IMG/VR virus record: IMGVR_UViG_3300025853_000053
Span: 1 to 64,000 of that record
From: an uncultured virus (IMG/VR IMGVR_UViG_3300025853_000053)
Taxonomy: Duplodnaviria; Heunggongvirae; Uroviricota; Caudoviricetes
Strand: one strand, 5' to 3'
Length of the DNA stretch: 64,000 nucleotides
Shown piece by piece: positions 8,811-50,615 of the stretch; position 1 is the stretch's first letter; each line of letters begins with the position of its first letter. Under the pieces are notes generated by a model that was given only the letters and a program-made list of their open reading frames with translations, had not been told where the DNA came from and did no database searches. A program made the translations under genes and the position numbers.

Positions 8811-8825
8811 GACAAATAATTTATC

Positions 8826-9941: not shown

Positions 9942-9942
9942 A

Positions 9943-10476: not shown

Positions 10477-10479
10477 TCT

Positions 10480-11259
10480 TTAATTTTTTCTATAGAAGGT
10501 TAGTGCCAATAAATCCTCAATATCATTTTTATTGGCATTATCAAATTCATCCCAGGTACGGTAATACTCTGGGCTTCCCTGCTGTAAATCTGATCTTCCT
10601 CTATCGATCTTTTTCCGATATTCATCCCGGGTCTTAGAGAAATAGTGATTTATCTGTGCTATTTCAGTATCCCCCCTTTGATTATAAGGACCTTCAGTTC
10701 TTAATCCCTCTGGTGAAATACCATCATAATAATAAAAGTGAGGATTAACAAAATATCCCGGTGATATCCCCGGGCTCATCTTTACTATAGATTTGATTGT
10801 GTTCTCACACCCAATCTGCCTCTTTGTGAATCTTTCTAACACCCCGGTAGTTCCCTCTGGAAATTCAGATATCCCGTTATCACCAAAGAAAACCCAGTTT
10901 ATTCCAATTTGATTTGTCTCGAATTGGTTAGATATATCAAATACAAAATCCTTAACACCCTGATGCTTTTTGAGAACCAAAAATTCATCAACATCAAAAA
11001 AAGCTGCCCAATCGTATTGGTCTGAATGATTTTCTAGGAAATGCCGATAGGACTTCATGTGCATCCCATCTCCGTTAATTTCTATAGTTTTTACCCTCTC
11101 GTTGTTACTGGAATATTCCCAGTCGTTTAGATAAAGATGTATCTGGTCAAACCCAAGCTTGAGGTTGTATTCTATCCATTCCCCTATATAGGGATCTTCG
11201 TCCTTTGCCATCGCGACAAGAGCTATTCTCATTCCAGCCATTCTTCTAATTTTTAACAC
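10480..11259 (-). CDS. glycosyltransferase (GT2/GT92-like, GT-A fold)
   Basis: AMAKDEDPYIGEWIEY, WAAFFDVDEFL (DxD), INHYFSKT. Confidence 0.85.
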   Translation of the reverse strand: MLKIRRMAGMRIALVAMAKDEDPYIGEWIEYNLKLGFDQIHLYLNDWEYSSNNERVKTIEINGDGMHMKSYRHFLENHSDQYDWAAFFDVDEFLVLKKHQGVKDFVFDISNQFETNQIGINWVFFGDNGISEFPEGTTGVLERFTKRQIGCENTIKSIVKMSPGISPGYFVNPHFYYYDGISPEGLRTEGPYNQRGDTEIAQINHYFSKTRDEYRKKIDRGRSDLQQGSPEYYRTWDEFDNANKNDIEDLLALTFYRKN

Positions 11260-12091: not shown

Positions 12092-13237
12092 TTAGAATAG
12101 TGTGTTAATCATAAAGAGGTTGGGTGATATTGGATTGTGCCCCATCACCTCTATGAATCGGTTGATTGGGTCTAAGATTGTTTTGGTAAACTGCTGATCA
12201 AAATCTATAGGGGGTGCAAATTCATAAGGGTGTGTTCCTTGAGAATAAGCAAAAACGTTATTGTCACCTGGATTTTTAACCTTAACAAAATAAAATCTTA
12301 CTTTTTCTCCTCCTCCAATAAGTGGATACTTGTCCTTGTACTTAGTTGAATTTAGCAAGAAGTTGTGATAAGCAGATGCTCTAACATGAATTGGGCAGCC
12401 TTTGGCAACCTCGAGTGCAGTAGTATCGTTTAAAACAAACTTTTGGTAATTGTTGACGTTCACGGCAACCGAGATGTTTTCAGGTTCCTGTGCTTTGAAG
12501 TCTTTTTTGATAGCCTTTAATTCCTGAACAAACTCCCTAAGTTCAAACCCACCACCTTTGCTAAAAATAAACTTAGTCAAGTAAATAAGCTTTTCCCTTA
12601 CAAAAGATGGGGTTCCACCTTTTACCATCTCAACCCCAGTGGTTTTAATTGAGCTTAGAGGCTCTGAATGTACACCATCAGAATAAACAATGTTCGTAAC
12701 ATACTTTTTCTTACCAAGGAAAATACCGTTGATCGAAAGGGTTTCCATCTCAAAATCTTGATAATTATCTGTGCCCCATTTTTCAGCATAGATATCAAAA
12801 CACTTTTTGAGATATCCAACCAACCGGTGTTCGTTAATTGCAAGAATTAAATCCTTATCATTACCCTTCCAGCCTTCACAGGAAGCAACTACCTCCTGGA
12901 AAGTAACATAGTTAGAATCTGTATCCCCATACACCACCATTGGTTTGTGTATCTTTTTGACGTTAGTAAGACCGAGCTTGTCGTGTAACTCTTTGTCTTT
13001 GTGCCAAAATTCGTGGAAGTACTTATGCAAAATTTTCTCTGAGTGCTTGATCAAATCCTGCCCCTGCAAAGTCACAGCCTCAGCAACCTCAGGATTGAAG
13101 CAGACGAACCAACTATTACCAATCGCTCCGTAGATGGAGTTCATAGTTAACTTAATAGCTTGTTCTTCGTTTTTGAGCTCGTTTTTTAAAGCAGTGAGCT
13201 TTTCAATTTTTTCCTTAAGGTCTTGTACTTCAGACAT
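12092..13237 (-). CDS. family B DNA polymerase, C-terminal subunit (gp43B-like)
   Basis: Motif B QAIKLTMNSIYG, motif C YGDTDS, KKKY, KTTGVEMVKG; no exonuclease or motif A; clamp-binding-like tail MINTLF. Confidence 0.9.
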   Translation of the reverse strand: MSEVQDLKEKIEKLTALKNELKNEEQAIKLTMNSIYGAIGNSWFVCFNPEVAEAVTLQGQDLIKHSEKILHKYFHEFWHKDKELHDKLGLTNVKKIHKPMVVYGDTDSNYVTFQEVVASCEGWKGNDKDLILAINEHRLVGYLKKCFDIYAEKWGTDNYQDFEMETLSINGIFLGKKKYVTNIVYSDGVHSEPLSSIKTTGVEMVKGGTPSFVREKLIYLTKFIFSKGGGFELREFVQELKAIKKDFKAQEPENISVAVNVNNYQKFVLNDTTALEVAKGCPIHVRASAYHNFLLNSTKYKDKYPLIGGGEKVRFYFVKVKNPGDNNVFAYSQGTHPYEFAPPIDFDQQFTKTILDPINRFIEVMGHNPISPNLFMINTLF

Positions 13238-15109: not shown

Positions 15110-16486
15110 TTATATATCTTCCTCGTCCTCCTCTTCTAGATCAAAAATCTCAATCTCGGGGTCAATAGAAATGCTCTTAGGTACTATTGATTTAGGAATA
15201 AGTGATGCAGATTTGTTTTTCTTTAAGGCATCAGTAACCTTTTTAACAATCTGTTTCTGCTTTGTGATTGCTTTTTTAGTTTCTTGGATACGCTTTTTGA
15301 TGTCCTTAATCATATTTTCGGTTTCCTTAATATGATCAGATGAAAGCTTCACTATCTGTATTTGAGAAAGTCTGGATGATATCCATTTAGCAAATTTATT
15401 GAGAAATTCTACAATCTCCTTATTTTGCCTTTTCTTTTGACTCATGAAGATAAGGAACTTAAGTTTTGCCTCGAGAAATTCCAGATCAAGCTTAAGGTCT
15501 ACCTCATCCTTCATTAACCTCTTAAGTCGAACATTTTCTAAATGGACCTTAAAAGAATCTAGATATGACTTTACAGAATCGAACTGAGCTACAGAGCCAT
15601 CTTTAATGAACACAACATTTTCCCTGACAACTATTTGGGTCTGTTTCTTAATGACATCCACTGCATCTTTAAATTCCTTTGGAGAAACCTTTTTTAGTGA
15701 TATGCCAATGTCACACTTACTTTGCGAGTTGTTTTGCATATAGTATTCATACCCATATGCTTCGAGTTTAGTCAGAAGTTTTTTCATGAAAGACTCGTAC
15801 CTCATAATTGGAGGAAGATCGAATATCCTGATCGTCTTTTTCCTTTCATTTATTTCAAATCCACTCTCTATGATCCAGGAATCATCGGAATCTAGTTTAT
15901 AGATTTTACCAGAAAAGTCTTTAAAATATGGTTTAAGAAGTTTGTTTTTCCCCTCCAAATATTCTACAATATCCTCAACCTTACGTGGCAAGATGTTGCT
16001 TCGATATCCTACAGCAATCCCTACTATGTGAGTTAAGAGACCAATTGGTATTTCCAAATGAAGCCAATCGTGACCACCTTCCTCATTTTTTTCATTAAGG
16101 TCTTTGTGCTTTTCTACAATATCCTTAATGTTCCTATTAATCTTAACTGCAGTGTATCTCGGGGCAGAAGGGTTAGGGTTAACAGGGGAACCGAAGAATC
16201 CATCACCCTCTAAAATTTCAAAGGAACAACCAAAGGGTCTAGCTAATTTGGAAATTGCACCAGCTAAAGAAGAATCTCCGTGATGGTATAGACCAGTACG
16301 GATAACTTCCCCAACAAGCCCAATTGTCTTATTAAAAGAATTTGGACTGTTTTCAATAATGATCCTTTGTACTGGAGTTAAGGAATCATAAAAGTTAGGA
16401 ATTCCTCTTGATTGTAAGACATAAAGGGCATAATCCCTATATTTCTCATTTATCTGTTCTGTAATAGTTAATGTATTCGCCACCAA
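15110..16486 (-). CDS. type IIA topoisomerase, GyrA/ParC/gp52-like subunit
   Basis: YRDYALY, RGIP..YDSLTPVQR, YHHGDSS, GDGFFGS, SAPRYT (catalytic Tyr), GIAVGY. Confidence 0.9.
   Translation of the reverse strand: MVANTLTITEQINEKYRDYALYVLQSRGIPNFYDSLTPVQRIIIENSPNSFNKTIGLVGEVIRTGLYHHGDSSLAGAISKLARPFGCSFEILEGDGFFGSPVNPNPSAPRYTAVKINRNIKDIVEKHKDLNEKNEEGGHDWLHLEIPIGLLTHIVGIAVGYRSNILPRKVEDIVEYLEGKNKLLKPYFKDFSGKIYKLDSDDSWIIESGFEINERKKTIRIFDLPPIMRYESFMKKLLTKLEAYGYEYYMQNNSQSKCDIGISLKKVSPKEFKDAVDVIKKQTQIVVRENVVFIKDGSVAQFDSVKSYLDSFKVHLENVRLKRLMKDEVDLKLDLEFLEAKLKFLIFMSQKKRQNKEIVEFLNKFAKWISSRLSQIQIVKLSSDHIKETENMIKDIKKRIQETKKAITKQKQIVKKVTDALKKNKSASLIPKSIVPKSISIDPEIEIFDLEEEDEEDI
15111..15118 (-). promoter_or_regulatory. 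GATATATA late-promoter-like box
   Basis: Upstream of 15093; overlaps the topoisomerase stop. Confidence 0.65.
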
Positions 16487-17628: not shown

Positions 17629-17645
17629 TATTTATCTTATATATC
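17629..17645 (-). promoter_or_regulatory. tandem GATATATA + GATAAATA boxes
   Basis: Upstream of 17618. Confidence 0.65.
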
Positions 17646-17655: not shown

Positions 17656-18000
17656 TTATTCTTTACCGCTGAAAGAATAAAAGAATACAACCAGACTATT
17701 CAATAGCACACTAACCCCGCTTGAAAGAAATCCATATGCAATGGTAGTAAGAGGATAGGATATCCAAAAATTGTGGGGCTGGGACGAAAGGTCACCCAGA
17801 GGATTATAAATAATTTCGCCGGTTGCTAAAATCCCCAGAATTATGCCAACCCAGAAACCACTACACTGCATACAGGAAAAAAGCTTATGTAATGTAGGAG
17901 CTTTAATAAGAAGGTAGACTCTTAATCGGTCAAAAATAGTTCCATTTACTAGGATGGAGGTGATTGACCAGGCAATTAGTATAAAATATAAATCTTTCAT
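17656..18000 (-). CDS. DUF1360-like membrane protein
   Basis: IFDRLR...LFSCMQCSGFWVG with hydrophobic helices. Confidence 0.65.
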   Translation of the reverse strand: MKDLYFILIAWSITSILVNGTIFDRLRVYLLIKAPTLHKLFSCMQCSGFWVGIILGILATGEIIYNPLGDLSSQPHNFWISYPLTTIAYGFLSSGVSVLLNSLVVFFYSFSGKE

Positions 18001-19019
18001 TAGAAATGATCCTTGTAGTTTTCTATAAATTCTTGCTGATTGGGGGATAAATTTTTAGGTACTTTTATACCAATCTTAACCAATATATCTCCTCGGTAAG
18101 TCGAGTTAAATTCAGGAACCCCCTTACCAGCTAATCTAAAAATCTTTCCGGGTGGTGTTCCAGGTGGAATTGTAATTTTATATTCTCCTCCGGAAACTAG
18201 ATTAGGAATATGGACCTCCTTACCAAGGCATGCTTCTGGGAAAGAAAGATCTACATCACATATCAAATTATACCCATCTCTTCTGAAAAATTCGTGTTTT
18301 TTGTCATAGACATTAACAACAAGATCACCAGGGTCTGATGGGGATTTAGCATGATCTCCTTTTTGAGGAACTCTAAATGTTATACCAGTAACAGATCCCT
18401 TTGGAATCTGAATTTCAATCTGGTCTGGCTTTCTAACAACCCCTGCTCCTCCACAGGTTTTACACATTGACTTTGGAATCTTTCCTGTGCCTTCACATGC
18501 ATAACAGGTTTCATCCATTGCCATTTGGCCAAAATTGGTATTTACTATTCGTCTTTTAACACCCATTCCAGCACAGACATGGCAGGTATCAAGTTCCGAG
18601 TTATGTGCACCAGTTCCTTTACAATCAGAACATTGCATCTTCCTGTAAAGGTTAGCGTTCTTCTTAGTCCCATTGAGAACCTCTTCTAAGGTAATTTCAA
18701 CTTTTGCGTTGATGTTGTTACCTTTTTTGATAACATCACCCTCATAGAAATTACTACCTCTAAAACCCCCGAAATCACCACCAAAGGGATTTCTACCAAA
18801 ACCTCCAAAGGGATTTGGATTATCATATTTAGATTTCTTTTCGGGATTACTGAGTGTATCGTAAGCCTCAGCTATTTCTTTGAACTTTTTCTCAGATTCC
18901 GGATCACCACCTGATTTATCTGGGTGATATTTCAGGGCTAATTTTCGATAAGCCTTCTTTATCTCCTCAGGAGTAGAATTCCTATTTACTCCAAGTATAT
19001 TGTAATAATCTGGCTTCAT
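18000..19019 (-). CDS. dnaJ: DnaJ chaperone
   Basis: J domain with HPD, G/F region, four CxxCxGxG repeats, C-terminal domain. Confidence 0.95.
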
Positions 19020-23030: not shown

Positions 23031-23312
23031 TTATATATCTTCAAGGGTTGGGTGTTTAGTAATCTTTACCTTTAATGTACCACTGCCCTTAATTATTCTA
23101 TGCCAGGTACCAGCTTTAATAGATATTTCACCATTACATTTAATTGGAAGCTGGTTATCAAACTGAAACATCCAATCATTGGGTTCAAAAAATTGTATAG
23201 TTCTGTCCTCCCAATCCTGATGCCACTTTAATTCAACCGGATCTATCCCAGAGTCAAAGCATCGGATATACTCTGTGCTTGAAATCTTTTCCTCTGAAAA
23301 TGGCCTTACCAA
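23031..23312 (-). CDS. small cupin-like protein
   Basis: WHQDWEDR...IKAGTWHRIIKG. Confidence 0.6.
   Translation of the reverse strand: MVRPFSEEKISSTEYIRCFDSGIDPVELKWHQDWEDRTIQFFEPNDWMFQFDNQLPIKCNGEISIKAGTWHRIIKGSGTLKVKITKHPTLEDI
23032..23039 (-). promoter_or_regulatory. GATATATA late-promoter-like box
   Basis: Upstream of 23012. Confidence 0.65.
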
Positions 23313-23909: not shown

Positions 23910-25196
23910 TTATTGAGCAACCGCCTCCTTAGAATTCATCACCTCAGCTTTCTTTGCAGCTGCTTGTCTATAATGGTCTAAGTTTTTAAGCATCCTTTCT
24001 TTCTCGTTAGGAGGCAAATGATTGAAGAAATCCATACGAACTACAGCATCCATCTTTTCGAAGGCCAATTCAGGATTACCTGTATGGAAAGCCGCTAGGG
24101 CATACTCATCTAAAAGTCTCCATTGCCAAACCTCAGGCTCAACAAAAAGAATATCTGAGGTCCCAGGGTTTTTTACAGCCATATTTCCATAGGTAAATGA
24201 AAGTACCCACCTACCTCTTTCCCTTAGCTTTCTCATGCAATGGAAAACTGCTTCAAGTCTTTCCGGTCTATATTCCCAAGCTCTAGAGTAAGCTTGGATT
24301 ACCTCATCTGGATGTCTTCCTAATTGTTCCTTGATTTTACCAATCATATACATTGAGTAGTATACTTCTTCCTCCCATCCACCAGCTTCGATTCTTCTCT
24401 CATAAGCTTCGATAGCTTTGACCTTTTGGTTAGAATCTCTATAGCTTTGGGCAAGATAGAACATATACCGTGTGTTTGCAGGCTCATCTTCTAATGCTTT
24501 CTCTAGAATTTCTGCATCTTTAGCATATTTCTCCTCAAGTGTATTTGCTCTCTTTAGTGGACTAATGTCAGCATTAACGAAACATTTATCTGCAGGTATT
24601 TGGTACTGGACTAGAGGTTCCTTTCCAGGTAAATCTAAATACTCGTGTAGTACACCTTTGTATACCCAATCCTGATCGGACCTGACTATTTGTGCCCTAT
24701 GGTACTGGAGGTTATTTAGCTTATATAGTATTTGGAAACAATCAACTTTTTCTTTTGGCAAATTGCTAAATGGATTAACGCTAGGATTTGCTACCTGGAA
24801 TGTATCATCAGCATCAATAATCCACCTGTAATCACATTTTCCTTTTGCAAGCTCAAGACTTTCTGTACGATTGACCTCAAAGTTTACCCATGGTCTTTCG
24901 TGGACTTCCCCATCGATACCAAGGTCTTTCATGGTAGAATTAATTTCTTCGATAGTATTATCAGAAGAACCTGTATCAACTATAACGTAGTATGAAATGT
25001 AAGGAGCAACCTGTGTAAGACATCTTCTAATTGTATCCCCTTCATCCTTTACAATCATAACAAGACAGAGAGATATATCCTGCTTAGTTAAATCTAGAGA
25101 CATCTGTGCAGCATCTTGACTGCTTAGGGTATTGATTTTTTGTGGTTTTTTAGAAGAAGTGTTTTTAACCTTTTTCTTTTTGCTCTTTGAAGCCAT
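23910..25196 (-). CDS. GT2 glycosyltransferase with TPR repeats
   Basis: LVMIVKDE, VDTGSSD, IIDADD, GVLHE; TPR-like RYMFYLAQSYRD. Confidence 0.9.
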   Translation of the reverse strand: MASKSKKKKVKNTSSKKPQKINTLSSQDAAQMSLDLTKQDISLCLVMIVKDEGDTIRRCLTQVAPYISYYVIVDTGSSDNTIEEINSTMKDLGIDGEVHERPWVNFEVNRTESLELAKGKCDYRWIIDADDTFQVANPSVNPFSNLPKEKVDCFQILYKLNNLQYHRAQIVRSDQDWVYKGVLHEYLDLPGKEPLVQYQIPADKCFVNADISPLKRANTLEEKYAKDAEILEKALEDEPANTRYMFYLAQSYRDSNQKVKAIEAYERRIEAGGWEEEVYYSMYMIGKIKEQLGRHPDEVIQAYSRAWEYRPERLEAVFHCMRKLRERGRWVLSFTYGNMAVKNPGTSDILFVEPEVWQWRLLDEYALAAFHTGNPELAFEKMDAVVRMDFFNHLPPNEKERMLKNLDHYRQAAAKKAEVMNSKEAVAQ

Positions 25197-31041: not shown

Positions 31042-31049
31042 TATATATC
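31042..31049 (-). promoter_or_regulatory. GATATATA late-promoter-like box
   Basis: Upstream of the dUTPase-nrdB-nrdA operon. Confidence 0.6.
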
Positions 31050-31086: not shown

Positions 31087-32499
31087 CTATGTTAATTTTT
31101 TTAATTGTTTCTCCAATCCGTCAATTTCTATCTGTAACTCAAGCATTCTCTTTTTTGTTGCCTTTCTTTTCGAGTATAAGTCCTTAATTATGGTCTTTAA
31201 AATCGGGTTTTCGTCATCCCCACCGAAAAGGGCAGTGGAGGATGTTTTTACCCATCCCTCCTTGGCTTCAGATATATCTTTCCCGAGCTTACCTTTATAA
31301 ACCTCAGGAGAAATTCCCCACTGCACAATTGTATTTGGATACAGGGAAGCAAAGTCATAACAAGCAACCCATTCATGTAGTCCCTTGATAGGCTCTTTCA
31401 CATATCCACCAATAAACTTGACATGACTTTCTTCTTTCCTTTCATTCACAAAGACCTGATTCCTCTCCAAGAACTTTTTGAGCATCATAACCTCCGTCGC
31501 CCAAACGGGGGAAAGAGCCCTGCTTATTTCAACGCGGTTCAGATTAGCTATTTTGAAGTAGGTTAAAAGGGTTTTTAACTTTACATCTATATAGTGAACC
31601 AGCGCACAGTCAATTACGTTGTAGAGAATAAATTTAGGGAAGTCAGACTGGTAGAGGTCCCTTAGGGATCCATCATATACTATCTTCTTTAATCCTGTAG
31701 CCTTCTCAGCAACATAATCTAATCTATTGCTCTCCTTGATCTTAATTGTCCGATCCCATTTTTTATAGATCTCAAGATAATCGACCATTAGCAAATGCAT
31801 AGGAAGATTGTTCTTTCCAATAAGCCAGTTAGCTGGCGAAATTACCTTTGGATCGATACCAAGTCTCTTAGCTCTATTCACCAAATATGGCCAGTCATAC
31901 CCAAACCAGTTCCACCCAGTTATCAATGGCATTTTAGGAGCCAGCTTCTTAAAGAAGGTATAAAGCATATCGTACTCGGATTCGAACTGATGATATTTAA
32001 AAGACCATTCATCACCCATTGGCTCAAGATACTCGTTGGTCTTTTTGTAAATGTCCGCTTGCTCCTCAGCTGAAAGTGGATCAAGTCCTAGAATTATTGA
32101 TTTACATCTATCTGTTGCAATACCAATTGAAAGTACCTTATTCTTAGCATTTGCGGTATCCAAAGAATCTCCCATCTCGTCGGTCATTTCAACCTCAATA
32201 TCCACAAAGTACTTTTTTGGGATCTGAAAATCCCAAAGAGACTTAGTTAAATCTGGGTCTGCCTCTTCTAGGATTTGAACCATCCTATATTTGTCATACT
32301 TCTGTGTTTTTACCTTCCTTACAGACATTCCATCCCAGGACTCCCAATCAGCTTCTCTTCTCCTATCATTGGGTGAGCATTTTTCCCATATAAACCTCTC
32401 ATCCTCCGGAACTGGAACATCAACAAAAATTAAATCACCTTCCTCAGAGAAAGATGATACCTTTAAATAAGTTCCCTTGTTTTCAATATCTACTATCAT
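31087..32499 (-). CDS. family B DNA polymerase, N-terminal subunit (3'-5' exonuclease plus motif A; gp43A-like)
   Basis: Exo I FVDIEV, Exo II GWNWFGYDWPYL, Exo III YNVIDC, GGYVKEP, motif A YDFASLYPN; ends after KRKATKKRM plus a helix. Confidence 0.9.
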   Translation of the reverse strand: MIVDIENKGTYLKVSSFSEEGDLIFVDVPVPEDERFIWEKCSPNDRRREADWESWDGMSVRKVKTQKYDKYRMVQILEEADPDLTKSLWDFQIPKKYFVDIEVEMTDEMGDSLDTANAKNKVLSIGIATDRCKSIILGLDPLSAEEQADIYKKTNEYLEPMGDEWSFKYHQFESEYDMLYTFFKKLAPKMPLITGWNWFGYDWPYLVNRAKRLGIDPKVISPANWLIGKNNLPMHLLMVDYLEIYKKWDRTIKIKESNRLDYVAEKATGLKKIVYDGSLRDLYQSDFPKFILYNVIDCALVHYIDVKLKTLLTYFKIANLNRVEISRALSPVWATEVMMLKKFLERNQVFVNERKEESHVKFIGGYVKEPIKGLHEWVACYDFASLYPNTIVQWGISPEVYKGKLGKDISEAKEGWVKTSSTALFGGDDENPILKTIIKDLYSKRKATKKRMLELQIEIDGLEKQLKKLT

Positions 32500-34230: not shown

Positions 34231-34587
34231 TTAAGCGATTTTAATTTTCTTAGGCATGGATTCTTTCTTCTTACCTATAGAAACTTTTAAAACCCCATCC
34301 TCAATTTTTGCTTTAACTGAATCAGTATCAGCTTCATTGGGTAACTTGAACTTCTTTGTAAAATCGTCCGTCCAATACGATTCGTTATCCTCACCAGTGA
34401 TAACTAAGAAAATTCCCTCGACATCAACCGAAATATCATTTTTAGAGAATCCAGAAACGGGTATTTCTAAAACATACTCGCTATCTTTTTCATCAACAAA
34501 GTAATTGCGGCTTTGGATAACCGGATTGGTGTTGTTAAAAATCTTTTCCATCATCTCCAAAGGGCTGTAGATAGTTGTTCTGTTCAT
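34231..34587 (-). CDS. small heat shock protein (Hsp20)
   Basis: EIPVSGFSKNDISV, FTKKFKLP, AKIEDGVLKV; start moved to MNRTTIY, downstream of the terminator. Confidence 0.9.
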   Translation of the reverse strand: MNRTTIYSPLEMMEKIFNNTNPVIQSRNYFVDEKDSEYVLEIPVSGFSKNDISVDVEGIFLVITGEDNESYWTDDFTKKFKLPNEADTDSVKAKIEDGVLKVSIGKKKESMPKKIKIA

Positions 34588-34640
34588 AGTTTGTTTTTTT
34601 ACTATTAATAGTTCAAATCCTATTCCAATACTAAAAAACA

Positions 34641-34669
34641 AAGAAAAAGGTGCCTTTTTGGCACCTTTT
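34641..34669 (-). terminator. intrinsic terminator
   Basis: aaaaggtgcc-ttttt-ggcacctttt. Confidence 0.8.
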
Positions 34670-34693
34670 AGCAATCTTGTATGACTTTTCGTC

Positions 34694-37933: not shown

Positions 37934-37941
37934 TATATATC
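37934..37941 (-). promoter_or_regulatory. GATATATA late-promoter-like box
   Basis: Upstream of 37914. Confidence 0.65.
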
Positions 37942-39853
37942 ATCCCCTGACGCTTGTAATAAGGTCGTTGTAAAGATTAGATACCTCTTTTGGAACCATC
38001 TTTTTGAACTTAGAAAAGTCTTGGTCCTTCATAGCTTGTCTAACCTCAGTACCGCTCGTTACCCTTGGTGTTTCTACAATACCAAGGTCATCACTTATTT
38101 TGTCCTTAATATCAGACATCTTAACATAGTCTATCTGCTTAGTGTAGTCATCAATTCGGTCGGGGCCTGCACCAATTAACTTGGGATCATATCCCATGTC
38201 TACTAGTCTTGCAATAGCAGACCCAAGAAGACCTCTTGTAGCAAGGACATATCCTTCAATCTCCTCGTTATTAGCAACTATTGCATCCATATATCTTTTG
38301 ATTGCCTCCTCATCAAATGGGGATTTTCCAGACTTGTTGTGTCCAGGATAAACCACAACAACAAAAGATGGGAGATCGTTTTTCTCCATGAGATCCTTCG
38401 CCATCTTAAGATGTCCCTGGTGGAAAGGCTGGAATCTACCCATTATGACATTAACTGGTTTTCTTTCCTCCGTATCTTTCTCCTTGAGCATTTCTACCTC
38501 AGCCGGGATCTCCTCGTTATCAATGGTTTCTAACTTGCTGATAAATTCCTGATATGAGAAAAAAGGGTCTTCGCTGGAATCCGTATCGTCCTCTTCTTGC
38601 AGATATTCTACTGAAGGTAGGTTTTCCTTTCTAAATTCTCCAAAGCTAATAAATTTAGATTCGTTTACTTTCTTCTCTGGTTTTTTGATGTAGTCCTTAA
38701 TATCTTTAATCAAAATATTCATCTGATCCTTCATACCAGAAGTTATGATACCACCTGCTCTAGTTTTTATCTTCCTAAAGGAATTAAGAATGAGTTTAAA
38801 TAAAGACTCAAATGAGTCATCCTTCTCAACATATTTAAGAACTCTTCTGTCTTTAATCTTTTCCTTATTCAGTCTGAATTCATCCCTCTTTAAGTAATCA
38901 GGCTCCTCAAAATCAGTACCCTTATACTTCTCCTCATATTCATCCAGGAATTTAACAAATACGTCTCCCATAAAGGAAATGTATCTCTCGTCTTCAGACT
39001 CACCTTCAACTTCAAATTCAGAAAGATCTTTTTCCAAAATGAAATTCATCACATCAAGCAATGTGATTCCAAGAAAATCCGAAGGCTTTTTACTCTTTTT
39101 GTCAGCAAACTTTTGCTTAGCTATTTCAGTGAATATAGGATCCACCATTTTGGCTAATACAGTATCACTATCTCCATCGAGCTCTCCAAATCTAAAAACT
39201 ATACCCTCGACATCCTTATCTAGGTCGTCGTTAAGAGCAGTTTTAGTTAAATCCGGGTTTAGGGTCTTAATAACAAACCTAACAAAAGATTGTGTTTTGA
39301 ACCTTTCAACAAGATCTTTGAACGGCGTGTTCAAAAAATCCATAAGCTCAGATTTCTGATCTTCGTCCAACACCCCCTGGAAAACGATTGGTGGTCTTTC
39401 AACTCCAATCAGATCTGCCCAATTATCCAATTCTTCCTTATCCTGGATAGTACTTTCTATCTTACCGCCAGTACCCATTTTATGGATATAAGAGAGAATT
39501 AGATTATTCTTTGGTAATCTATCATACGAGATCTCTACAGGTTTGGTGTTTGAAAAATACTCAAGACCAAATCTCCATCCCCTAGGTATTTTTTCCAATA
39601 TGTTTGGTGGGAGTGATTCAATATACTGGATTGGCTTCTCATAATACTTCATGAGTGTTCTGTCCACAAGAGTTATAGGATTTCTTTGATCCCTCCTATA
39701 AAACCTAAAATTACCAGATTCTTTATCTCTCTCAAAAGAGAAAGCTGATCCGTCCATCTTTTCATTGATCGTTACGTAACGATTAAAAAGCTGGTTGACA
39801 AAATCAGATCCCTTCTTATTATAAATGTCATATAAGTGATTTATTCCCGCCAT
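37940..39853 (-). CDS. fusion of ATP-dependent ligase-like nucleotidyltransferase and HIGH-family cytidylyl/adenylyltransferase
   Basis: Motif I NEKMDGS, EYF, EGIVFR, LAKMVD; C-terminal GRFQPFHQGH, SPF, GAGPDR, SGTEVR. Confidence 0.75.
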   Translation of the reverse strand: MAGINHLYDIYNKKGSDFVNQLFNRYVTINEKMDGSAFSFERDKESGNFRFYRRDQRNPITLVDRTLMKYYEKPIQYIESLPPNILEKIPRGWRFGLEYFSNTKPVEISYDRLPKNNLILSYIHKMGTGGKIESTIQDKEELDNWADLIGVERPPIVFQGVLDEDQKSELMDFLNTPFKDLVERFKTQSFVRFVIKTLNPDLTKTALNDDLDKDVEGIVFRFGELDGDSDTVLAKMVDPIFTEIAKQKFADKKSKKPSDFLGITLLDVMNFILEKDLSEFEVEGESEDERYISFMGDVFVKFLDEYEEKYKGTDFEEPDYLKRDEFRLNKEKIKDRRVLKYVEKDDSFESLFKLILNSFRKIKTRAGGIITSGMKDQMNILIKDIKDYIKKPEKKVNESKFISFGEFRKENLPSVEYLQEEDDTDSSEDPFFSYQEFISKLETIDNEEIPAEVEMLKEKDTEERKPVNVIMGRFQPFHQGHLKMAKDLMEKNDLPSFVVVVYPGHNKSGKSPFDEEAIKRYMDAIVANNEEIEGYVLATRGLLGSAIARLVDMGYDPKLIGAGPDRIDDYTKQIDYVKMSDIKDKISDDLGIVETPRVTSGTEVRQAMKDQDFSKFKKMVPKEVSNLYNDLITSVRG

Positions 39854-41724: not shown

Positions 41725-41732
41725 TATATATC
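41725..41732 (-). promoter_or_regulatory. GATATATA late-promoter-like box
   Basis: Heads the 41718-37940 operon. Confidence 0.65.
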
Positions 41733-45078: not shown

Positions 45079-46032
45079 TTAGAGATCTGCGTATAGGTCG
45101 TCTAGGGACGATGAAGTTTCTGGTGCTGAAGGTTGGCTGATGCCCTTATCCTCTTTTGCAGGTTCGGATCCTACCTTTGTTGAAGAAGCTTCATTATAGA
45201 AATCGTTCGTTGAACTAGAAGATGAAGTTGTAGTAGAAGATTGGTTTACACCTCCTAAAACCTCATTAACTAATCTTCCGTCAGGAACTGAATTCTTAAT
45301 AACATTCATCACACGGTCGGTAGTATTTTGATCCCAATCCTTGTATTCAAATTGTGTGAGGTTATCAGGACCTGTTTTAAGGTATTCCATGATTGCATTC
45401 ATGTCATCCTGATTCTTAGCCATCTTCTTGCCGTTGATCTCGATAGCGGTTCTATCACCAACGAATGAGCAAAGATCGTAGTTGTTCCACTCACCAACTT
45501 TTCTTGTATGTACTGAGAAAAGTTTACCTTCAAAAAGATCGTAAGGGTTGCAAGAATCTCCATATTCAGGCTTGAGCTGTGCTTCGAGCATATCGTTTAG
45601 CTTACGTCCAAATTTGAAGATCATAATTTTTCCCTCAAGCTCAGGATTGTGTTTATCCTGTACGATTTGAATGAGTGAGTAGTAGTCTTCCTTTCTAGAA
45701 AAACTTCTTGATAATTCTTGGTCTGCTGCTGAATGTGAATTTTTCAGCTTCCAGAACATGTCCTTAAGTACTGATTTTTTTCCTACCGTTGACGGACAGT
45801 CAACTGGAAATCCATCACCTGTTGTTGGATCGTTTAGATAAACGTAGTACTTGTGGATTTTTGATTTCGTCGGATCGACGTGGTTAGGAAGAAAACGGAT
45901 CAGCGATTTGTAAACTCCATCCTTTCCGTTTTCCGGATATGGTTTGTAAAATTCTGTTCCTTCTGAATTCTCCTTTTTTGCTTTCGTTACGAATGCTTCC
46001 GCATCCAAATTGAAAATGTCTAAATTACTCAT
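45079..46032 (-). CDS. single-stranded DNA-binding protein (gp32-like)
   Basis: IRFLP, CPSTVG, PELEGKIMIFKFG, NPYDLFEG, NNYD; acidic tail SLDDLYADL. Confidence 0.85.
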   Translation of the reverse strand: MSNLDIFNLDAEAFVTKAKKENSEGTEFYKPYPENGKDGVYKSLIRFLPNHVDPTKSKIHKYYVYLNDPTTGDGFPVDCPSTVGKKSVLKDMFWKLKNSHSAADQELSRSFSRKEDYYSLIQIVQDKHNPELEGKIMIFKFGRKLNDMLEAQLKPEYGDSCNPYDLFEGKLFSVHTRKVGEWNNYDLCSFVGDRTAIEINGKKMAKNQDDMNAIMEYLKTGPDNLTQFEYKDWDQNTTDRVMNVIKNSVPDGRLVNEVLGGVNQSSTTTSSSSSTNDFYNEASSTKVGSEPAKEDKGISQPSAPETSSSLDDLYADL

Positions 46033-46073: not shown

Positions 46074-46856
46074 CTAAGTGTCCCAAATGTTTCCCCTAGA
46101 CATTATATATCCAAAACTTTTTTCATCTATTTCGTTTTCTGATACTTCGGTCTCCCAAACATTCTTACCTCGGAGTGAAACTTTGACAAACGGCCTAGAT
46201 AAACCAAATTCAGAACTTTCTATGTGATATCTTAGTAAAGTTTCAGGGTGGAAGTAAATATCGGATAGAATATACTCCTCCAGATAGTCGAACATTTTGC
46301 AGTAATGCTCCATTGCATCTCTACCTCCCCAAGCCAATATATCATTTACCCCACCTTTCCAATCAAACCCAGGAGGAACATTGATCTTATCCAAGTCCTG
46401 TCCTAAATTCAATTCATTGTGAATCTTAATATCCATTCTTCCCTTGATGACGCAATCGTACTTTTGACCTACCTGGATTTCATATTCTTCCATCAAGGAG
46501 TAAGCTTGTCTAATTTTATACCACATCAAAAAAACAGACACTGGATTGATCTCACCAGTCTGTGGACCAAACCCCTCATAAGACCAAGCCCTGTCAATAA
46601 ACTTTCTAATCGCATCAGAACCAAAATCGTCGGTCTTCAAGTGCTTGGGTGAATACATCTTTATAAGATCGTCAATGGTTAAGGAGTCCACTAGATCTTT
46701 AGTTTCAGCATGTAGAGATTGGTTGATTTCACCCGAGGGATTCCAAGTTGATATGAAAACATCAGTATCATACTTATCTAAAATTTCTGACTTGATAAAC
46801 GGGAAGGAATCCTGAGCTTCCCTTATTTGACCAGGAAGTAGCAAGGCAACCCTCAT
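46074..46856 (-). CDS. putative glycosyltransferase-like protein
   Basis: RVALLLPGQIR, DVFISTW, MWYKI, YDCVIKGRMD, NDILAWG, HPETLL. Confidence 0.6.
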   Translation of the reverse strand: MRVALLLPGQIREAQDSFPFIKSEILDKYDTDVFISTWNPSGEINQSLHAETKDLVDSLTIDDLIKMYSPKHLKTDDFGSDAIRKFIDRAWSYEGFGPQTGEINPVSVFLMWYKIRQAYSLMEEYEIQVGQKYDCVIKGRMDIKIHNELNLGQDLDKINVPPGFDWKGGVNDILAWGGRDAMEHYCKMFDYLEEYILSDIYFHPETLLRYHIESSEFGLSRPFVKVSLRGKNVWETEVSENEIDEKSFGYIMSRGNIWDT

Positions 46857-47287
46857 GAATAATTCACAATATAATCAGAACATACACCACAACAACTATC
46901 AACTTTCTCCTCGTACATCTCAGGTAAAACCGCAATGCTTTTGCTAATTGGTTGCATCCCAGGAAAAGCCCAAATGAAAGATTTAGAGGTAAGGGTTACC
47001 TTGTCGTTTTCGTGCCAAAAAACATTGAGATCTCCATATTCCTTCAGATAAACCATAGCTGATATGTTTTTACAATGTATCCATAACTTATCCCCTCTTT
47101 CTAAAAGCCAAGCAAGATGTATTTTGGTTTCTGGAGAATCGTGTCCCAAATAGATTGATGCTCCGGAGATCCAAACGTCGATCTCCACATCATACCCCAG
47201 ATCAAGAGCTTCCTGTATATAGTCAATCGTATTTTCTCTATCCGGATTTGGACCTTTTAAATTACCTCTATGTGATATTAGCTTCAT
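46853..47287 (-). CDS. minimal glycerophosphodiester-phosphodiesterase/PLC-like protein
   Basis: ISHRGN, EN, GYDVEIDVW, LGHD, WIHCKN, GVCSD. Confidence 0.75.
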   Translation of the reverse strand: MKLISHRGNLKGPNPDRENTIDYIQEALDLGYDVEIDVWISGASIYLGHDSPETKIHLAWLLERGDKLWIHCKNISAMVYLKEYGDLNVFWHENDKVTLTSKSFIWAFPGMQPISKSIAVLPEMYEEKVDSCCGVCSDYIVNYS

Positions 47288-47288
47288 A

Positions 47289-48524
47289 TCAGAATATTCG
47301 ATAGTCTAGATCTTCCGAGAAACATTTATTACCCCACTTTTCTATTGCTGCTTTATATTCAGGCTCATCATGATCTCCATCGATAGACTGTCTCATTGCC
47401 AAGGCACCAGCTCTAGTTCCCTGTGGGTGTCCATGCATAGCACCGCCAACGTTTGCCATCCAATCGAAGCTTCCTATTGTTGTATTAATATACTCAACAA
47501 GCCCTGGATGCATACCACAGCTTAAAGCAGGAACAATGTTATAATTCCAAAGGGTTTGTAAGGTATCTTTTATTTCCTGCTCATCTTGGCTCATATAACC
47601 GCCGATCATTCCTGCATGGATCGAATCGACTCCAGACCACCCAGCGATCTTGCACAAAACCGGCCAGTAAATGTGGTTTGGCGCCCTACGGTCAGTAAAG
47701 AATTTATCTCCGCTCTTTTGGAAATGTATCCAGAGATTTGGATTTTGCTTTCTAATAGCACGATAAATTCCCAGGCCGCTCCACACGTTTATGTGTATTC
47801 CGTTCCCACCGTTATCTGCTACAAATTTTGCCCTTTCTAAGGCATATGGACTATCACCATTTATGCAAAAGCAATAAATTACGTCGGGCGCATTCTCTTT
47901 TAACCAAGATGAAATCAAAGGTACTCTTTCTTCAAGAGGGCAGTGGGAAGGGTTAGCAAGTAATTCATCCTCTTTGATGAAATTCACACCACCATAAACC
48001 ATTTCCTTCACAGCTTCGAGAAGAACAGAGGGAGACATACCAACCTTAGGTTTAACTATTCCACCTAAGAAAGGTCTTTGTTTTATACCATTAAATTTCC
48101 TCCATCCATCAATACCATAGGCCGGATTTAAAGAAAATGATCTCTCAGCATCCTCAGGCAAAGAAATGTCCAAGACATGACATTGTCTTACTTCCTCTAT
48201 GTCAACCTGACCACCAGCTATATGACAAAGTATTTGAGAGATCCCATCTTCTTCCAAATTAAGATTTGCTAGAGGAAAAGCTATCTCGATCTCGCCCTCT
48301 TTTAGCTGGGTAAGATCTTCTTCGTTTGCAAGAATAAAGCAACTGTGATTTTCAAACATCTCATCGGTTTCCCACTCGCTCCTATTATTCGGGTTACCTA
48401 TACTTTGACCTATAGCCAAATTCCAGGAAGCTTCCCTCAAAGAAGTTTTAGCTTCCAAAAAGTATTTGACTATAAAATACTGGGATGTATCAAAATCCGC
48501 CTTATTTTTAAAAATGCTTATCAT
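47289..48524 (-). CDS. RuBisCO-like protein (form IV)
   Basis: IAFP, GIDGWR, GIVKPKVG, GGVNFIKEDE, INGD, GVDSIHAG, PALSCG, GGAMHGHPQGTRAGALAMRQ, AIEKWG. Confidence 0.9.
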   Translation of the reverse strand: MISIFKNKADFDTSQYFIVKYFLEAKTSLREASWNLAIGQSIGNPNNRSEWETDEMFENHSCFILANEEDLTQLKEGEIEIAFPLANLNLEEDGISQILCHIAGGQVDIEEVRQCHVLDISLPEDAERSFSLNPAYGIDGWRKFNGIKQRPFLGGIVKPKVGMSPSVLLEAVKEMVYGGVNFIKEDELLANPSHCPLEERVPLISSWLKENAPDVIYCFCINGDSPYALERAKFVADNGGNGIHINVWSGLGIYRAIRKQNPNLWIHFQKSGDKFFTDRRAPNHIYWPVLCKIAGWSGVDSIHAGMIGGYMSQDEQEIKDTLQTLWNYNIVPALSCGMHPGLVEYINTTIGSFDWMANVGGAMHGHPQGTRAGALAMRQSIDGDHDEPEYKAAIEKWGNKCFSEDLDYRIF

Positions 48525-48844
48525 TCAATTACAAATTTATCACCAGGAACCGAGGGGGTCTTAACTATAAAAACTTCACAGTCTTCCAAAAATACGGGGT
48601 CAGCAATTTCATCTTTCCTTAGAATAAACACATCCCCCGAATTTAATTCCCGTCCTTGTATAATCATTTTACCCGATCTGAGGAAGTTTATTTCATCCGC
48701 TTCCTTATGGTAATGTTTTGGCCACTCTTCGCCCTTGAAGTGCTTTTTATAACAAATCTCAAAATCACTAGTTTGGTAAGCTACTGGGGAGAAATCTCCA
48801 GCATACCAACCTCCCTTCATATCTTCAATTCTATAAACTTCCAT
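48521..48844 (-). CDS. cupin-fold protein (sugar isomerase/epimerase-like)
   Basis: GWYAGDF, HYHKEADEIN, VKTPSVPGDK. Confidence 0.75.
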   Translation of the reverse strand: MEVYRIEDMKGGWYAGDFSPVAYQTSDFEICYKKHFKGEEWPKHYHKEADEINFLRSGKMIIQGRELNSGDVFILRKDEIADPVFLEDCEVFIVKTPSVPGDKFVIE

Positions 48845-48847
48845 AAA

Positions 48848-49579
48848 CTAAACCAACTTTAAAAATTTATCCAGGTCCTCTGGGGTACCTATCGGAAAGT
48901 GAAGGTTATAGAAGAAGGGCAATATTTTCTTTCCACTTTTTATCATGTAATTGTAGGTAGGTGCAACATAGAACTCATTATTGTACCGATCGTTTGCTGC
49001 TATCATTTGTTCCGCACTTTCCACAAAGTATTTACCATGCTTCCAAAAATGTAACCCGTTAGTAGCAATGTTGGAAATCACAATTTTTTCCTTCACATCA
49101 CAGACCTCTCCGTTTGGATCTAACTTAACATAGCTGTTCTTTTTAGAAGAGGAAAGAAAACATCCCAACAATCCATCACACCCCGTAGTTCTTGCAAAAT
49201 CTAAAATGAAGTCCAGATTGAAATCCAGAATAATCTGATCACAGTTAACAACAATGAGAGGCAGATCGTTATTGATCGACTGACTTGCAAAGAGAACCGT
49301 TGAAGCTGGTCCTTGTGTTAATGTTGGGGTTGAGAAAATCTCATACGATATTCCCATGTCTGATATATGGGAGTCAAATTCTGTAGGAGAAATATATTCC
49401 TCGTTTATCACAAATACAAAGTGTGCATCTTGATGATTTAGGTTTTTAATCACTGACCTAATCATCGTTTCTCCGCTGACGTCTATAAATGGTTTTATCT
49501 GTAGGTATCCAGCGTCGCTGAATCTCCTTCCAGCACCTCCGAGAGGAATAAGAATGTTAACCTTCTTTGATTGAGTCAT
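48848..49579 (-). CDS. sugar-phosphate nucleotidyltransferase (NTP_transferase family)
   Basis: LIPLGGAGRRF, KPFIDV, GPASTV, VNCDQ, VKEK, NEFYVAP, GTPEDL. Confidence 0.85.
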   Translation of the reverse strand: MTQSKKVNILIPLGGAGRRFSDAGYLQIKPFIDVSGETMIRSVIKNLNHQDAHFVFVINEEYISPTEFDSHISDMGISYEIFSTPTLTQGPASTVLFASQSINNDLPLIVVNCDQIILDFNLDFILDFARTTGCDGLLGCFLSSSKKNSYVKLDPNGEVCDVKEKIVISNIATNGLHFWKHGKYFVESAEQMIAANDRYNNEFYVAPTYNYMIKSGKKILPFFYNLHFPIGTPEDLDKFLKLV

Positions 49580-50228
49580 ATAAAAATAAACATATCCAGG
49601 TCGAATCTATAATATCATCCAATGGCTTGTTTACATTACCGGAGGGAGTTATCCATTCGTCCTTATTTTCTTCTAAAATACTAGTGAAAGACCCTAAATT
49701 AGTTTCTGGAAATTTGTGATCAATAAGAGAATTATAAAGTTCGTGTTTTTTTGCATTTCCCTTAAAAGCGAACTTCTTGATAGAGGTGGGTGAATAAACA
49801 TAGAAATTATCGCTACCTGTATGATCAACTATTTTCTTACGGAGTAGAGCTGTGGCCATAGAGATATCAATCAAAGCATTACCATTAGAGGCAAAACTTA
49901 GTCCTTCCATAGCTACAACAATATCATCACCTGCACAGATATTTTCTACTTCAGACCAAAATTCATCAACGAGCTCCTGAAAATAATCTATCTTTATCCT
50001 TTCCCTTTCCGAGTAGTCTTCTGGCATTTTATCCTTTGACATAAACATAAGAACATAGTCTTCCGTTTTGTCTTCAGATAAAACATAGTAAGGTTTTTTA
50101 GCATTTTTCTTAAGTGATTCTGCAGTCCGGTCACTTCTTGTTAAAGACCCCCAAGTGAATTGATTATCCCTTAGAATACAGAATGCGGGTGAATTAAGGG
50201 AAAAGTCTATCCCAACTAATGTTTTCAA
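49557..50228 (-). CDS. RuvC/RNase H-fold Holliday junction resolvase-like nuclease
   Basis: GIDFSLNSP, MEGLSF, SPTSIKKFA..GNAKK, DDIIDS. Confidence 0.75.
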   Translation of the reverse strand: MKTLVGIDFSLNSPAFCILRDNQFTWGSLTRSDRTAESLKKNAKKPYYVLSEDKTEDYVLMFMSKDKMPEDYSERERIKIDYFQELVDEFWSEVENICAGDDIVVAMEGLSFASNGNALIDISMATALLRKKIVDHTGSDNFYVYSPTSIKKFAFKGNAKKHELYNSLIDHKFPETNLGSFTSILEENKDEWITPSGNVNKPLDDIIDSTWICLFLYDSIKEG

Positions 50229-50253: not shown

Positions 50254-50261
50254 TATATATC
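50254..50261 (-). promoter_or_regulatory. GATATATA late-promoter-like box
   Basis: Just after a terminator; heads the resolvase and RuBisCO-like cassette operon. Confidence 0.65.
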
Positions 50262-50266: not shown

Positions 50267-50293
50267 AAAAAAGCTCCCCGTTTCCAGGGAGCT
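50267..50293 (-). terminator. intrinsic terminator
   Basis: agctccc...gggagct stem with U6 tail on the minus strand. Confidence 0.75.
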
Positions 50294-50607: not shown

Positions 50608-50615
50608 TATATATC
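50608..50615 (-). promoter_or_regulatory. GATATATA late-promoter-like box
   Basis: Upstream of 50586. Confidence 0.65.

Follow-up and report, generated by a model that had tools for sequence, protein, structure and literature searches.

A RuBisCO-like protein coupled to a sugar-phosphate nucleotidyltransferase in a phage gene cassette

An uncultured tailed phage (Caudoviricetes; IMG/VR record IMGVR_UViG_3300025853_000053) carries a gene for a RuBisCO-like protein (RLP) within a run of five genes at 46074-49579. The stretch of DNA analyzed here, hereafter the window, comprises positions 1 to 64,000 of that record. To judge from its active-site residues, the RLP is not a carboxylase, and its most constant companion, in viral and cellular loci alike, is a sugar-phosphate nucleotidyltransferase (NT). 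There is good support for the general interpretation, in which a non-carboxylating RLP stands at the center of a sugar-activation cassette. More specifically, and with moderate confidence, we propose that the five genes form a horizontally mobile glycan-precursor cassette with the RLP and the NT as its constant core, in which the RLP, acting as an enolising isomerase or epimerase, supplies the NT.

Results

Five tightly coupled genes

The five genes lie head to tail on the minus strand. First comes the NT (48848..49579, 243 aa; PF00483, E 2.6e-10; phrog_3980, E 1.6e-56), followed by a small metal-binding cupin with a His-His-Glu triad read from the sequence (48521..48844, 107 aa; phrog_24762, E 9e-30) and by the RLP itself (47289..48524, 411 aa; PF00016, E 4e-33). 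The last two encode a minimal GDPD-fold phosphodiesterase, assigned by structural search and by its retained HRG...EN...ExD...HD residues (46853..47287, 144 aa), and a transferase-like protein with a predicted GT-A fold and a weak likeness to DUF7796 (46074..46856, 260 aa). Packing is close throughout: gaps of 3 nt between NT and cupin and of 1 nt between RLP and the 144-aa gene, and overlaps of 4 nt between cupin and RLP and between the 144-aa and 260-aa genes. The original prediction had described just such a coupled run between a resolvase and gp32, and the coordinates of the open reading frames (ORFs) agree with it, as do the family and fold searches.

An active site that retains enolisation residues but not those of carboxylation

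The RLP belongs to the RuBisCO large-chain superfamily. It scores 115 bits against PF00016 (cut-off 30.1), its N-terminal RuBisCO domain reaches 19.7 bits, just below the cut-off of 20.7, and it matches 99 chains among solved structures at E <= 1e-3, the closest being 2cwx (E 5e-37). However, it falls below every NCBIfam RuBisCO cut-off (rubisco_III, 167.8 vs 497; PRK04208, 145 vs 438; form II, 94 vs 489), and likewise below those for MtnW (119 vs 409; 89 vs 513.6) and OiaX (NF042437, 124.6 vs 700).

We aligned the window RLP and 79 RLPs from other viral loci (together 80 phage rows) with 13 clade representatives and with reference rows, of which four form III, one form II and one MtnW row pass their NCBIfam cut-offs and two OiaX-like rows lie below theirs. 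Columns are given in what we take to be spinach RbcL numbering, anchored on the KPK, KxDE, HxHR and GGG motifs. K175, K177, K201, D203, E204, H327, S379, G381, G403 and G404 are kept in all 80 phage rows, and the activation and enolisation residues among them (K175, K177, K201, D203 and E204) are likewise kept when the RLP is aligned to 2cwx. The same 80 rows share the substitutions E60G (then Q), T65N, N123G, H294Q, R295K, K334Y and G380C, at columns where the reference carboxylases, four of form III and one of form II, have E, T, N, H, R, K and G. At the four carboxylation positions E60, N123, H294 and K334, the window RLP thus reads G, G, Q and Y. The original prediction had read most of this pattern by eye, with K175/K177, K201/D203/E204, H327 and S379 kept and E60, N123, H294 and K334 lost, and it proves right in every phage row; its view of the RLP as non-carboxylating is upheld by both the residue alignment and the alignment to 2cwx.

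In RuBisCO, CO2 addition, hydration and C-C cleavage depend on other residues than do metal/carbamate binding and proton abstraction. The RLP appears to retain the latter set intact and to have lost the former, and is accordingly predicted not to carboxylate. Both anion-binding sites also seem to persist, through G381/G403/G404 and through the lysine at 295 together with H327. Since the metal/carbamate site and both anion sites are kept, the RLP most likely uses Mg2+ to enolise a ketose that is anionic at both ends, and so works as an isomerase or epimerase. That the residue pattern is invariant in 80/80 rows argues for selection on a working site with altered chemistry.

It is useful to contrast this site with those of characterized relatives. 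MtnW (YkrW), the 2,3-diketo-5-methylthiopentyl-1-phosphate enolase, is also non-carboxylating and keeps K175, K201, D203 and E204. However, the MtnW row lacks K177, R295 and H327 (it has P and L at 295 and 327), keeps H294, and falls in a separate clade; the MtnW substrate carries a single phosphate. The RLPs of apiose catabolism, OiaC, OiaX and OiaT, are enzymes of 3-oxo-isoapionate-4-phosphate, a bis-anionic branched sugar-acid phosphate. The OiaX-like rows share H327 with the window RLP but keep R295 where it has K, and by keeping E60, N123, H294 and K334 and losing K177 they show the opposite pattern to the window clade. The OiaX system is, moreover, catabolic, not linked to an NT, and placed in a supported clade of its own.

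The nucleotidyltransferase is the constant partner

In IMG/VR, 123 viral loci were found to encode RLP relatives (51-100% identity; the longest contig measures 518 kb), and 80 of them were kept; among prokaryotes, scanned at one genome per species, there were 47 cellular loci. Partners were counted by profile searches of six-frame ORFs within 6 kb of the RLP. An NT lies near the RLP in 77/80 viral and 42/47 cellular loci, or about 94% of the 127, and four of the five cellular loci without an adjacent NT are contigs under 5 kb. The other partners are less constant: cupin, 74/80 viral and 14/47 cellular; mini-GDPD, 61/80 and 26/47; GT-A protein, 48/80 and 11/47. A tblastn version of the viral counts gave 77 (NT), 74 (cupin), 61 (GDPD) and 33 (GT-A) of 80. 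By comparison, the backbone genes RuvC, gp32 and primase accompany the RLP in only 16-17/80 viral loci (RuvC in 16/80), so the cassette appears to move as a unit between phage backbones and to be horizontally mobile. The co-occurrence of RLP homologues with NT, cupin and GDPD-like genes, whose absence would have counted against the original prediction, is thus seen in viral and cellular loci; what it had missed is that the same RLP-NT pair is widespread in cellular genomes.

Several of these genes also occur fused. RLP and NT form one polypeptide in P0123 (667 aa), among the representatives of 50%-identity clusters. NT and cupin form a single ORF in 10 loci by tblastn, two of which (L072 and L078) are tblastn calls alone, since their fused ORFs match no Pfam family at E <= 1e-3. 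HAD-NT fusions occur in six loci, that of L019 being confirmed by Pfam as HAD_2 + NTP_transferase, the reverse order, NT-HAD, in L056, and a GDPD-GT-A fusion in L061. Bifunctional type II phosphomannose isomerase/GDP-mannose pyrophosphorylases are also NT-cupin enzymes, and the fusions with a C-terminal cupin resemble their layout; the window cupin itself lies below Pfam thresholds. In L019 (3951-4313) and seven other viral loci, a small PF07659 gene ('nucleotide modification associated domain 1', E 1.1e-5) stands directly upstream of the HAD-NT gene. Among distant RLP relatives, P0178 (583 aa) is fused to a TIR domain and P0224 (1265 aa) to an APH-type kinase domain, and P0157 and P0159 are fusions of an IF-2B-family isomerase with form III RuBisCO.

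The wider viral neighborhoods hold SDR epimerases/dehydratases (29 loci), three methyltransferase families, UDP-GlcNAc 2-epimerase, GT2, DegT aminotransferase and UDP-glucose dehydrogenase, which by family are typical nucleotide-sugar tailoring enzymes.

Cellular relatives and the origin of the clade

The RLP is carried by a complete 'Candidatus Pelagibacter' chromosome (53% identity), by many SAR11 single-cell genomes and by a Verrucomicrobiae chromosome. It also occurs in DPANN archaea (Woese-, Nano-, Pace- and Micrarchaeota), in Patescibacteria, including a Beckwithbacteria metagenome-assembled genome (MAG), and in Planctomycetes, Elusimicrobia and Turneriella. More distant carriers are Azospirillum oleiclasticum (37%) and three cultured Legionella species, Tatlockia and Francisellaceae (34%).

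The surroundings of the cellular RLP-NT pair are, by gene content, surface-glycan loci. The Pelagibacter locus contains GT9 and a CMP-sugar synthetase-type gene; SAR11 loci contain GT17, GT61, RmlD and DUF4422; the Francisellaceae locus contains Bac_transf, GT2 and GtrA; and that of Turneriella contains GT2. Across the cellular loci, SDR genes occur in 11 and GT2 in 12, and DegT is also among the neighbors. In Legionella nautarum, LicD stands beside the RLP-NT pair, which recalls the LicC/LicD logic of phospho-alcohol decoration. Neither phosphoribulokinase nor a methionine-salvage gene was found among the neighbor families scanned. Four cellular loci in which no cupin was detected (L099, L109, L111 and L113) have a second, more divergent NT paralogue on the RLP's other flank.

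One nominally cellular locus, on a 64.2-kb contig (L086) of a 'Saprospirales' MAG, carries the whole cassette at 63-85% identity. Because it also carries RuvC, gp32 and tail tube, at 91-96%, it is clearly a phage contig, binned with a Bacteroidota genome. This binning is a possible but weak hint at a Bacteroidota host.

Two trees place the RLP. An exhaustive HMMER search gave 1038 matches at E <= 1e-3, from whose best 150, among which form I is too distant to appear, 97 full-length cluster representatives entered the first tree. The window RLP falls there in a 21-row clade (SH-aLRT 99), 18 rows of which match no NCBIfam model at E <= 1e-60. This clade is separate from the form III/II groups and from the MtnW-like and OiaX-like rows, each of which has a supported clade of its own. 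The clustering with MtnW that would have spoken against the original prediction is therefore not seen, in keeping with scores below the MtnW cut-offs.

The second tree holds 68 phage and 45 'cellular' rows and is rooted on six outgroup rows. Its deepest branches are cellular: Elusimicrobia/Turneriella; Azospirillum/Legionella/Francisellaceae; and DPANN with one SAR11 group. The phage RLPs are nested higher, interleaved with a second, separate SAR11 group and others, and supported branches force at least five switches between phage and cell. The two trees were built quickly under LG+G4 and carry warnings of long branches, and some of their cellular labels are MAG bins. From them we conclude no more than that the clade is not restricted to phages, is probably of cellular origin and has been exchanged repeatedly.

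The partner proteins

The NT scores 40.8 bits against PF00483 (cut-off 21.2), and G15, G17 and R19 of its N-terminal G-x-G-x-R loop are, like K29, invariant in 38 rows. Its profile matches an uncharacterized 'nucleoside-diphosphate-sugar pyrophosphorylase', 4evw, over the full length (E 5e-33), and more weakly the mannose-1-phosphate guanylyltransferases (ManC) and glucose-1-phosphate thymidylyltransferases (RmlA types).

The cupin reaches no Pfam threshold (Cupin_7, E 0.014, 15.6 vs 27). It nevertheless contains cupin motif 1, G(X)5HXH(X)4E(X)6G, whose H44, H46, E51 and G58 are invariant in 40 homologues and place it in the superfamily; the histidine of motif 2 was not found in its sequence. 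A language-model atlas puts it next to Cupin_2 clusters at 0.96, some with a MannoseP_isomer share of 13-33%. Among solved structures, its profile finds generic cupins only: quercetinase (E 2e-6), a cupin-2/'mannose-6-phosphate isomerase' entry (E 1e-4), KdgF and Cap5F.

The 144-aa protein has the GDPD N-terminal motif, found by profile in 7e0v (E 6e-5) and also aligning with 3i10. The catalytic and metal-ligand residues of GDPD are present: H6, R7, E18, N19, E35, D37 and H49 are invariant in 35 rows and D50 nearly so. Its structure model (pLDDT 97) superposes on GDPD 1o1z with Z 10.3 and rmsd 3.3 over 137/144 residues (VIA-align). In a VIA search against structural representatives, the top 22 chains were all GDPD/PLD barrels (Z 10.3-7.8, 133-140/144 residues aligned), and other TIM barrels reached Z <= 6.1. 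The protein has no Pfam GDPD match, Foldseek returned nothing at E <= 1e-3 (a weak match had E 4.5e-3), and the atlas gave a weak GDPD lead at 0.85. At 144 aa vs 217-328 aa in solved GDPDs, or about 60% of the usual length, its model indicates a GDPD barrel stripped down.

The 260-aa protein (model pLDDT 86.8) has a GT-A fold according to Foldseek, with BoGT6a first (E 1.7e-6, prob 1.00, TM 0.45-0.53), then glycogenin and alpha-3-GalT; it is most like the retaining GT6/GT8 enzymes. A profile match that would have made it a tRNA ligase was at chance level (E 0.007 against solved structures) and was set aside.

Cultured phages and earlier work

Neither a tblastn search with the RLP nor a blastn search with the cassette found a match in 50,697 GenBank phage records, from which very close relatives of the window may be missing; on the phage side, all RLPs seen so far thus come from viral contigs that are uncultured. 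The NT family occurs in 22 of these records, 19 of them Synechococcus phages, at 24-41% identity, and the cupin in three, at 42%. In Synechococcus phage Bellamy, the NT of the cluster around gp206-208 is fused to RpiB, and next to it come a cupin and a DUF7796-type protein, then a double NT, GT61 and a class II aldolase; in S-SKS1, gp42 is an NT fused to DHBP synthase, with a DUF7796 protein nearby. These clusters resemble the window in having the same NT family (31-32% identity), a cupin (42%) and a DUF7796-type protein inside sugar clusters. Unlike the window, they have no RLP, and the NT is fused to RpiB or DHBP synthase instead. RpiB and DHBP synthase both use ribulose 5-phosphate. The comparison suggests that RLP, RpiB and DHBP synthase may be interchangeable ways of producing a sugar phosphate for the NT.

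The bare existence of phage RLPs is not new, contrary to what the original prediction had implied. In 2019, phage contigs from IMG/VR and groundwater, among them a ~200-kb phage and some myoviruses, were reported to carry about 80 non-redundant RLPs of a Form IV-like type (Jaffe 2019, Mol Biol Evol, PMC6389311). These are highly divergent, lack the carboxylase residues and, together with two sequences from Beckwithbacteria, branch outside the other RLPs; their function was left 'unclear' (PMC6389311). The present set gives a similar, if indirect, picture, with large myovirus-type contigs, an IMG/VR source and a Beckwithbacteria relative (L097) in the clade of the window RLP. That work frames the clade as phage plus Beckwithbacteria, whereas here SAR11, Verrucomicrobia, DPANN, Legionella and others belong to it too, with cellular rows basal. 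The words 'cupin', 'nucleotidyl' and 'glycosyl' do not occur in its main text.

Among the literature matches listed, we found no later functional study pairing RuBisCO-like proteins with phage, huge or jumbo phage, or Pelagibacter. The pairing with nucleotidyltransferase gave one unrelated review, and that with viral contigs and nucleotidyltransferase together gave nothing relevant among the matches listed. Papers pairing RuBisCO-like with cupin dealt only with the methylthioadenosine (MTA)-isoprenoid shunt and methionine salvage. As far as these searches show, what is new is the RLP-NT partnership, the fusions, the fixed alternative active site and the presence of the clade in cells, SAR11 and DPANN archaea among them.

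Genomic setting and transcription signals

The IMG/VR record is 78,835 bp long, and because CheckV rates it 28% complete, the full phage genome would be near 280 kb. Its backbone is T4-like, with split DNA polymerase, topoisomerase II, RNR, Dda, UvsW-like helicase, primase and tail tube. Among GenBank phages, the UvsW-like helicase has its nearest relatives in Lak phages and in huge uncultured ones, with 44% identity to a 462-kb record of the latter. The idea of a cyanophage whose host supplies ribulose bisphosphate (RuBP) was reduced to speculation, there being no psbA in the record and these huge uncultured and Lak phages being nearest by helicase.

The NT overlaps by 23 nt the 3′ end of the upstream gene for a RuvC-like Holliday junction resolvase (49557..50228, minus strand; phrog_159, E 3.9e-14), a backbone gene outside the mobile cassette. 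At the other end, 41 nt separate the 260-aa GT-A gene from the next backbone gene, that for a gp32-like single-strand DNA-binding protein (45079..46032, minus; PF08804, E 1.8e-12; phrog_224, E 2.2e-33). The promoter-like box GATATATA, which the original prediction had placed at 50254, is located at 50254..50261 (minus), 26 nt ahead of the RuvC-like start. Ahead of it, at 50272..50293 (minus), a terminator-like hairpin with a nine-pair stem (six GC pairs) and a TTTTT tail may end the transcript from the upstream p81/tail-tube side. No minus-strand terminator-like site was found within the cassette, and the next GATATATA box (46104..46111, minus) falls within the 3′ end of the GT-A gene, 72 nt before gp32. 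Since hairpin and box precede the RuvC-like gene and no internal terminator-like site intervenes, this gene and the five cassette genes likely form one transcription unit.

The box occurs 15 times in the window vs 3.4 expected, a number reached by none of 100 shuffles, and 13 of the 15 copies are on the coding strand, mostly 17-26 nt ahead of start codons. Example sites are 8827-8834, 15111-15118, 17638-17645, 23032-23039, 31042-31049, 37934-37941, 41725-41732, 46104-46111, 50254-50261 and 50608-50615; boxes precede the genes starting at 30989 (MazG-like), 15093, 41718, 8810 and 50586. Over-represented 4-5 times, it is a recurrent promoter-like motif and likely this phage's own promoter. Because it stands before replication genes too, it gives no basis for a 'late' timing of the cassette, and the late-made target of the original prediction is not supported.

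A second glycan cluster lies at 7317-11259 on the minus strand: a RimK-like ATP-grasp protein (7317-8810), the UDP-galactopyranose mutase Glf (8826-9941; PF03275, E 8e-77), a methyltransferase (9943-10476) and a GT2/GT92-like protein (10480-11259). From these genes, the phage may make galactofuranose-containing glycans. A GT2 glycosyltransferase fused to TPR repeats is encoded at 23910-25196 (minus; phrog_13126). That the phage has these other glycan genes (Glf, GT2/GT92 and GT2-TPR) speaks for the glycan-precursor reading of the cassette. The DNA polymerase is apparently split between 12092-13237 and 31087-32499 (minus), about 18 kb apart and matching different parts of the phrog_262 profile. 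The window further encodes a full-length DnaJ with J, zinc-finger and C-terminal domains (18000-19019, minus), an Hsp20 (34231-34674) and a 637-aa protein (37940-39853, minus) whose N-terminal domain resembles an RNA ligase and whose C-terminal domain resembles a cytidylyltransferase.

Discussion

A proposed route to an activated sugar

In the glycan-precursor cassette that we favor, the RLP would bind a ketose anionic at both ends, whether bisphosphate or phospho-acid, and abstract a proton to give a metal-stabilized enediolate, whose re-protonation would yield an isomer or epimer. The cupin, as a metal-dependent isomerase type, would tailor this product, in some relatives together with a fused HAD phosphatase/mutase, and the NT would couple the tailored product to a nucleotide. 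The GT-A-fold protein would then transfer the activated group to an acceptor glycan. The mini-GDPD would act somewhere along the route on a phosphodiester, either in a precursor or in a phosphodiester-linked product.

Our leading guess for the substrate is a pentulose of the ribulose-phosphate type, a lead that we follow because related NTs are fused to RpiB or DHBP synthase, both enzymes of ribulose 5-phosphate. Two routes from there can be envisaged. In a glycosyl route, an anomeric sugar 1-phosphate would become a nucleoside-diphosphate sugar, as favored by the greater closeness of the NT to ManC/RmlA types and by the SDR neighbors. In a phospho-alcohol route, the NT would activate a primary phosphate, as in CDP-ribitol, CDP-xylulose and CDP-choline, and the group would end in a phosphodiester; the steady presence of a phosphodiesterase-fold enzyme, LicD in Legionella and the NT-DHBP-synthase fusion favor this version. 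The cellular contexts of the RLP-NT pair argue for envelope glycans as the target, which for the phage could be glycans of the host surface or of the virion. DNA could also be a target, since the cassette lies among replication genes, although the fragment holds no base-modification gene.

Several observations weigh against this scheme. Glycan-related neighbors may only reflect insertion of the cassette into variable islands. Since kinase, mutase and dehydratase genes are all missing from the window cassette, its five genes do not suffice to write out a full pathway starting at a central metabolite, and no SDR was found in the 78.8-kb record, which is ~28% of the genome. The cupin is absent or undetected in 33/47 cellular loci, so its step is not universal. 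The GT-A likeness of the 260-aa protein is moderate (TM 0.45), and its conserved residues (R140 and D142 invariant, D134 and D172 near-invariant) are at most candidates for a donor-binding DxD motif. Finally, the counts include near-duplicates, the viral loci holding 67 distinct RLP sequences, and some 'cellular' loci are MAG contigs, perhaps of misbinned phage. Of the original prediction, the making and activation of a sugar stands, helped by nucleotide-sugar and glycosyltransferase genes in neighborhoods elsewhere; the 'branched or epimerised' nature of that sugar and its destination on virion, host surface or DNA remain guesses.

Alternative explanations

The activated sugar could instead be a donor for hypermodification of phage DNA, protecting the genome from host nucleases; there is precedent in T4-like phages, with their glucosyl- or arabinosyl-hydroxymethylcytosine DNA. 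The cassette does sit among replication genes (RuvC, gp32, primase and UvsW-like helicase), the PF07659 family just upstream of the HAD-NT gene recurs in eight viral loci, and dNMP-kinase-like and MazG-like genes occur in the window. However, the cassette moves independently of the replication backbone, and its cellular homologues lie in loci of the lipopolysaccharide/O-antigen type (GT9, Bac_transf, GtrA, LicD), which point to surface glycans. Neither a thymidylate-synthase-family hydroxymethylase nor PF07659 was found in the 78.8-kb record, which, as ~28% of the genome, is uninformative for the other ~72%. Weighing these points, we regard DNA modification as unlikely.

Less probable still is a salvage pathway like the MTA-isoprenoid shunt, in which the RLP would isomerize a 5-deoxy- or 5-methylthio-pentulose phosphate, the cupin would remove the substituent and the NT would activate the product. 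In Rhodospirillum rubrum, an RLP serving as 5-methylthioribulose-1-phosphate isomerase is followed by a cupin methylsulfurylase, and this pair is reported to make 1-deoxyxylulose 5-phosphate (PMC6302742). RLP plus cupin is thus a known pairing, and the only such link that our literature search found; the scheme proposed for the window RLP resembles it in having an RLP that enolises or isomerises and a small cupin that acts on the product. A ketose 5-phosphate could in principle also be activated by an NT. Yet the window RLP belongs to another clade, separate from MtnW-like rows (SH-aLRT 99) and far below the MtnW cut-offs, and retains a second anion site for which a methylthio substrate would have no use. 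Its partners are NT, GDPD and GT-A proteins rather than salvage genes, with no MtnA-, MtnB-, MtnK- or MtnP-type family among the neighbor families scanned, and no named methylsulfurylase appeared among the solved structures in the cupin profile search at E up to 10.

An auxiliary role in carbon metabolism, in which the RLP, unrelated to its neighbors, would carboxylate or oxygenate the ribulose bisphosphate of the host or drain the Calvin/pentose-phosphate pool, is very improbable: the RuBisCO large-chain fold, the intact KPK and K-x-D-E motifs and a form III model as the nearest in NCBIfam by score (167.8 bits) speak for it, but that score is far below the cut-off of 497, E60, N123, H294 and K334 are replaced in 80/80 rows, no psbA was found in the record, the helicase relatives are huge phages of non-phototroph lineages, and close linkage to the NT, as well as fusion with it, weighs against a separate role.

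What the clade may mean

Beyond the glycan-precursor cassette itself, a broader proposal can be made, which we hold only tentatively and think rather doubtful in its full extent. The clade would be the first branch of the RuBisCO superfamily devoted to the biosynthesis of nucleotide-activated sugars. A bis-anionic pentulose, possibly ribulose 1,5-bisphosphate or a close relative, would be enolised without CO2 to a rare epimerised or rearranged sugar phosphate, which the NT would activate for the decoration of SAR11, DPANN and other surfaces. Phages, on this view, would repeatedly have taken up the pathway as a means of altering the host envelope or of cloaking their own particles.

RLPs are a classic example of an old fold re-used for new chemistry. 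To our knowledge, only a handful of RLP reactions have been described, all catabolic or salvage. The wiring of RLP to NT by synteny and fusion provides a concrete, testable hypothesis for a new, biosynthetic one, and offers a functional reading for phage RLPs that have gone unexplained since 2019. The clade is found in many large phages and in SAR11, one of the ocean's most abundant bacterial groups. Surface glycans are the main interface for phage adsorption and grazing, and the cassette suggests that an unrecognized sugar is present in those of microbes.

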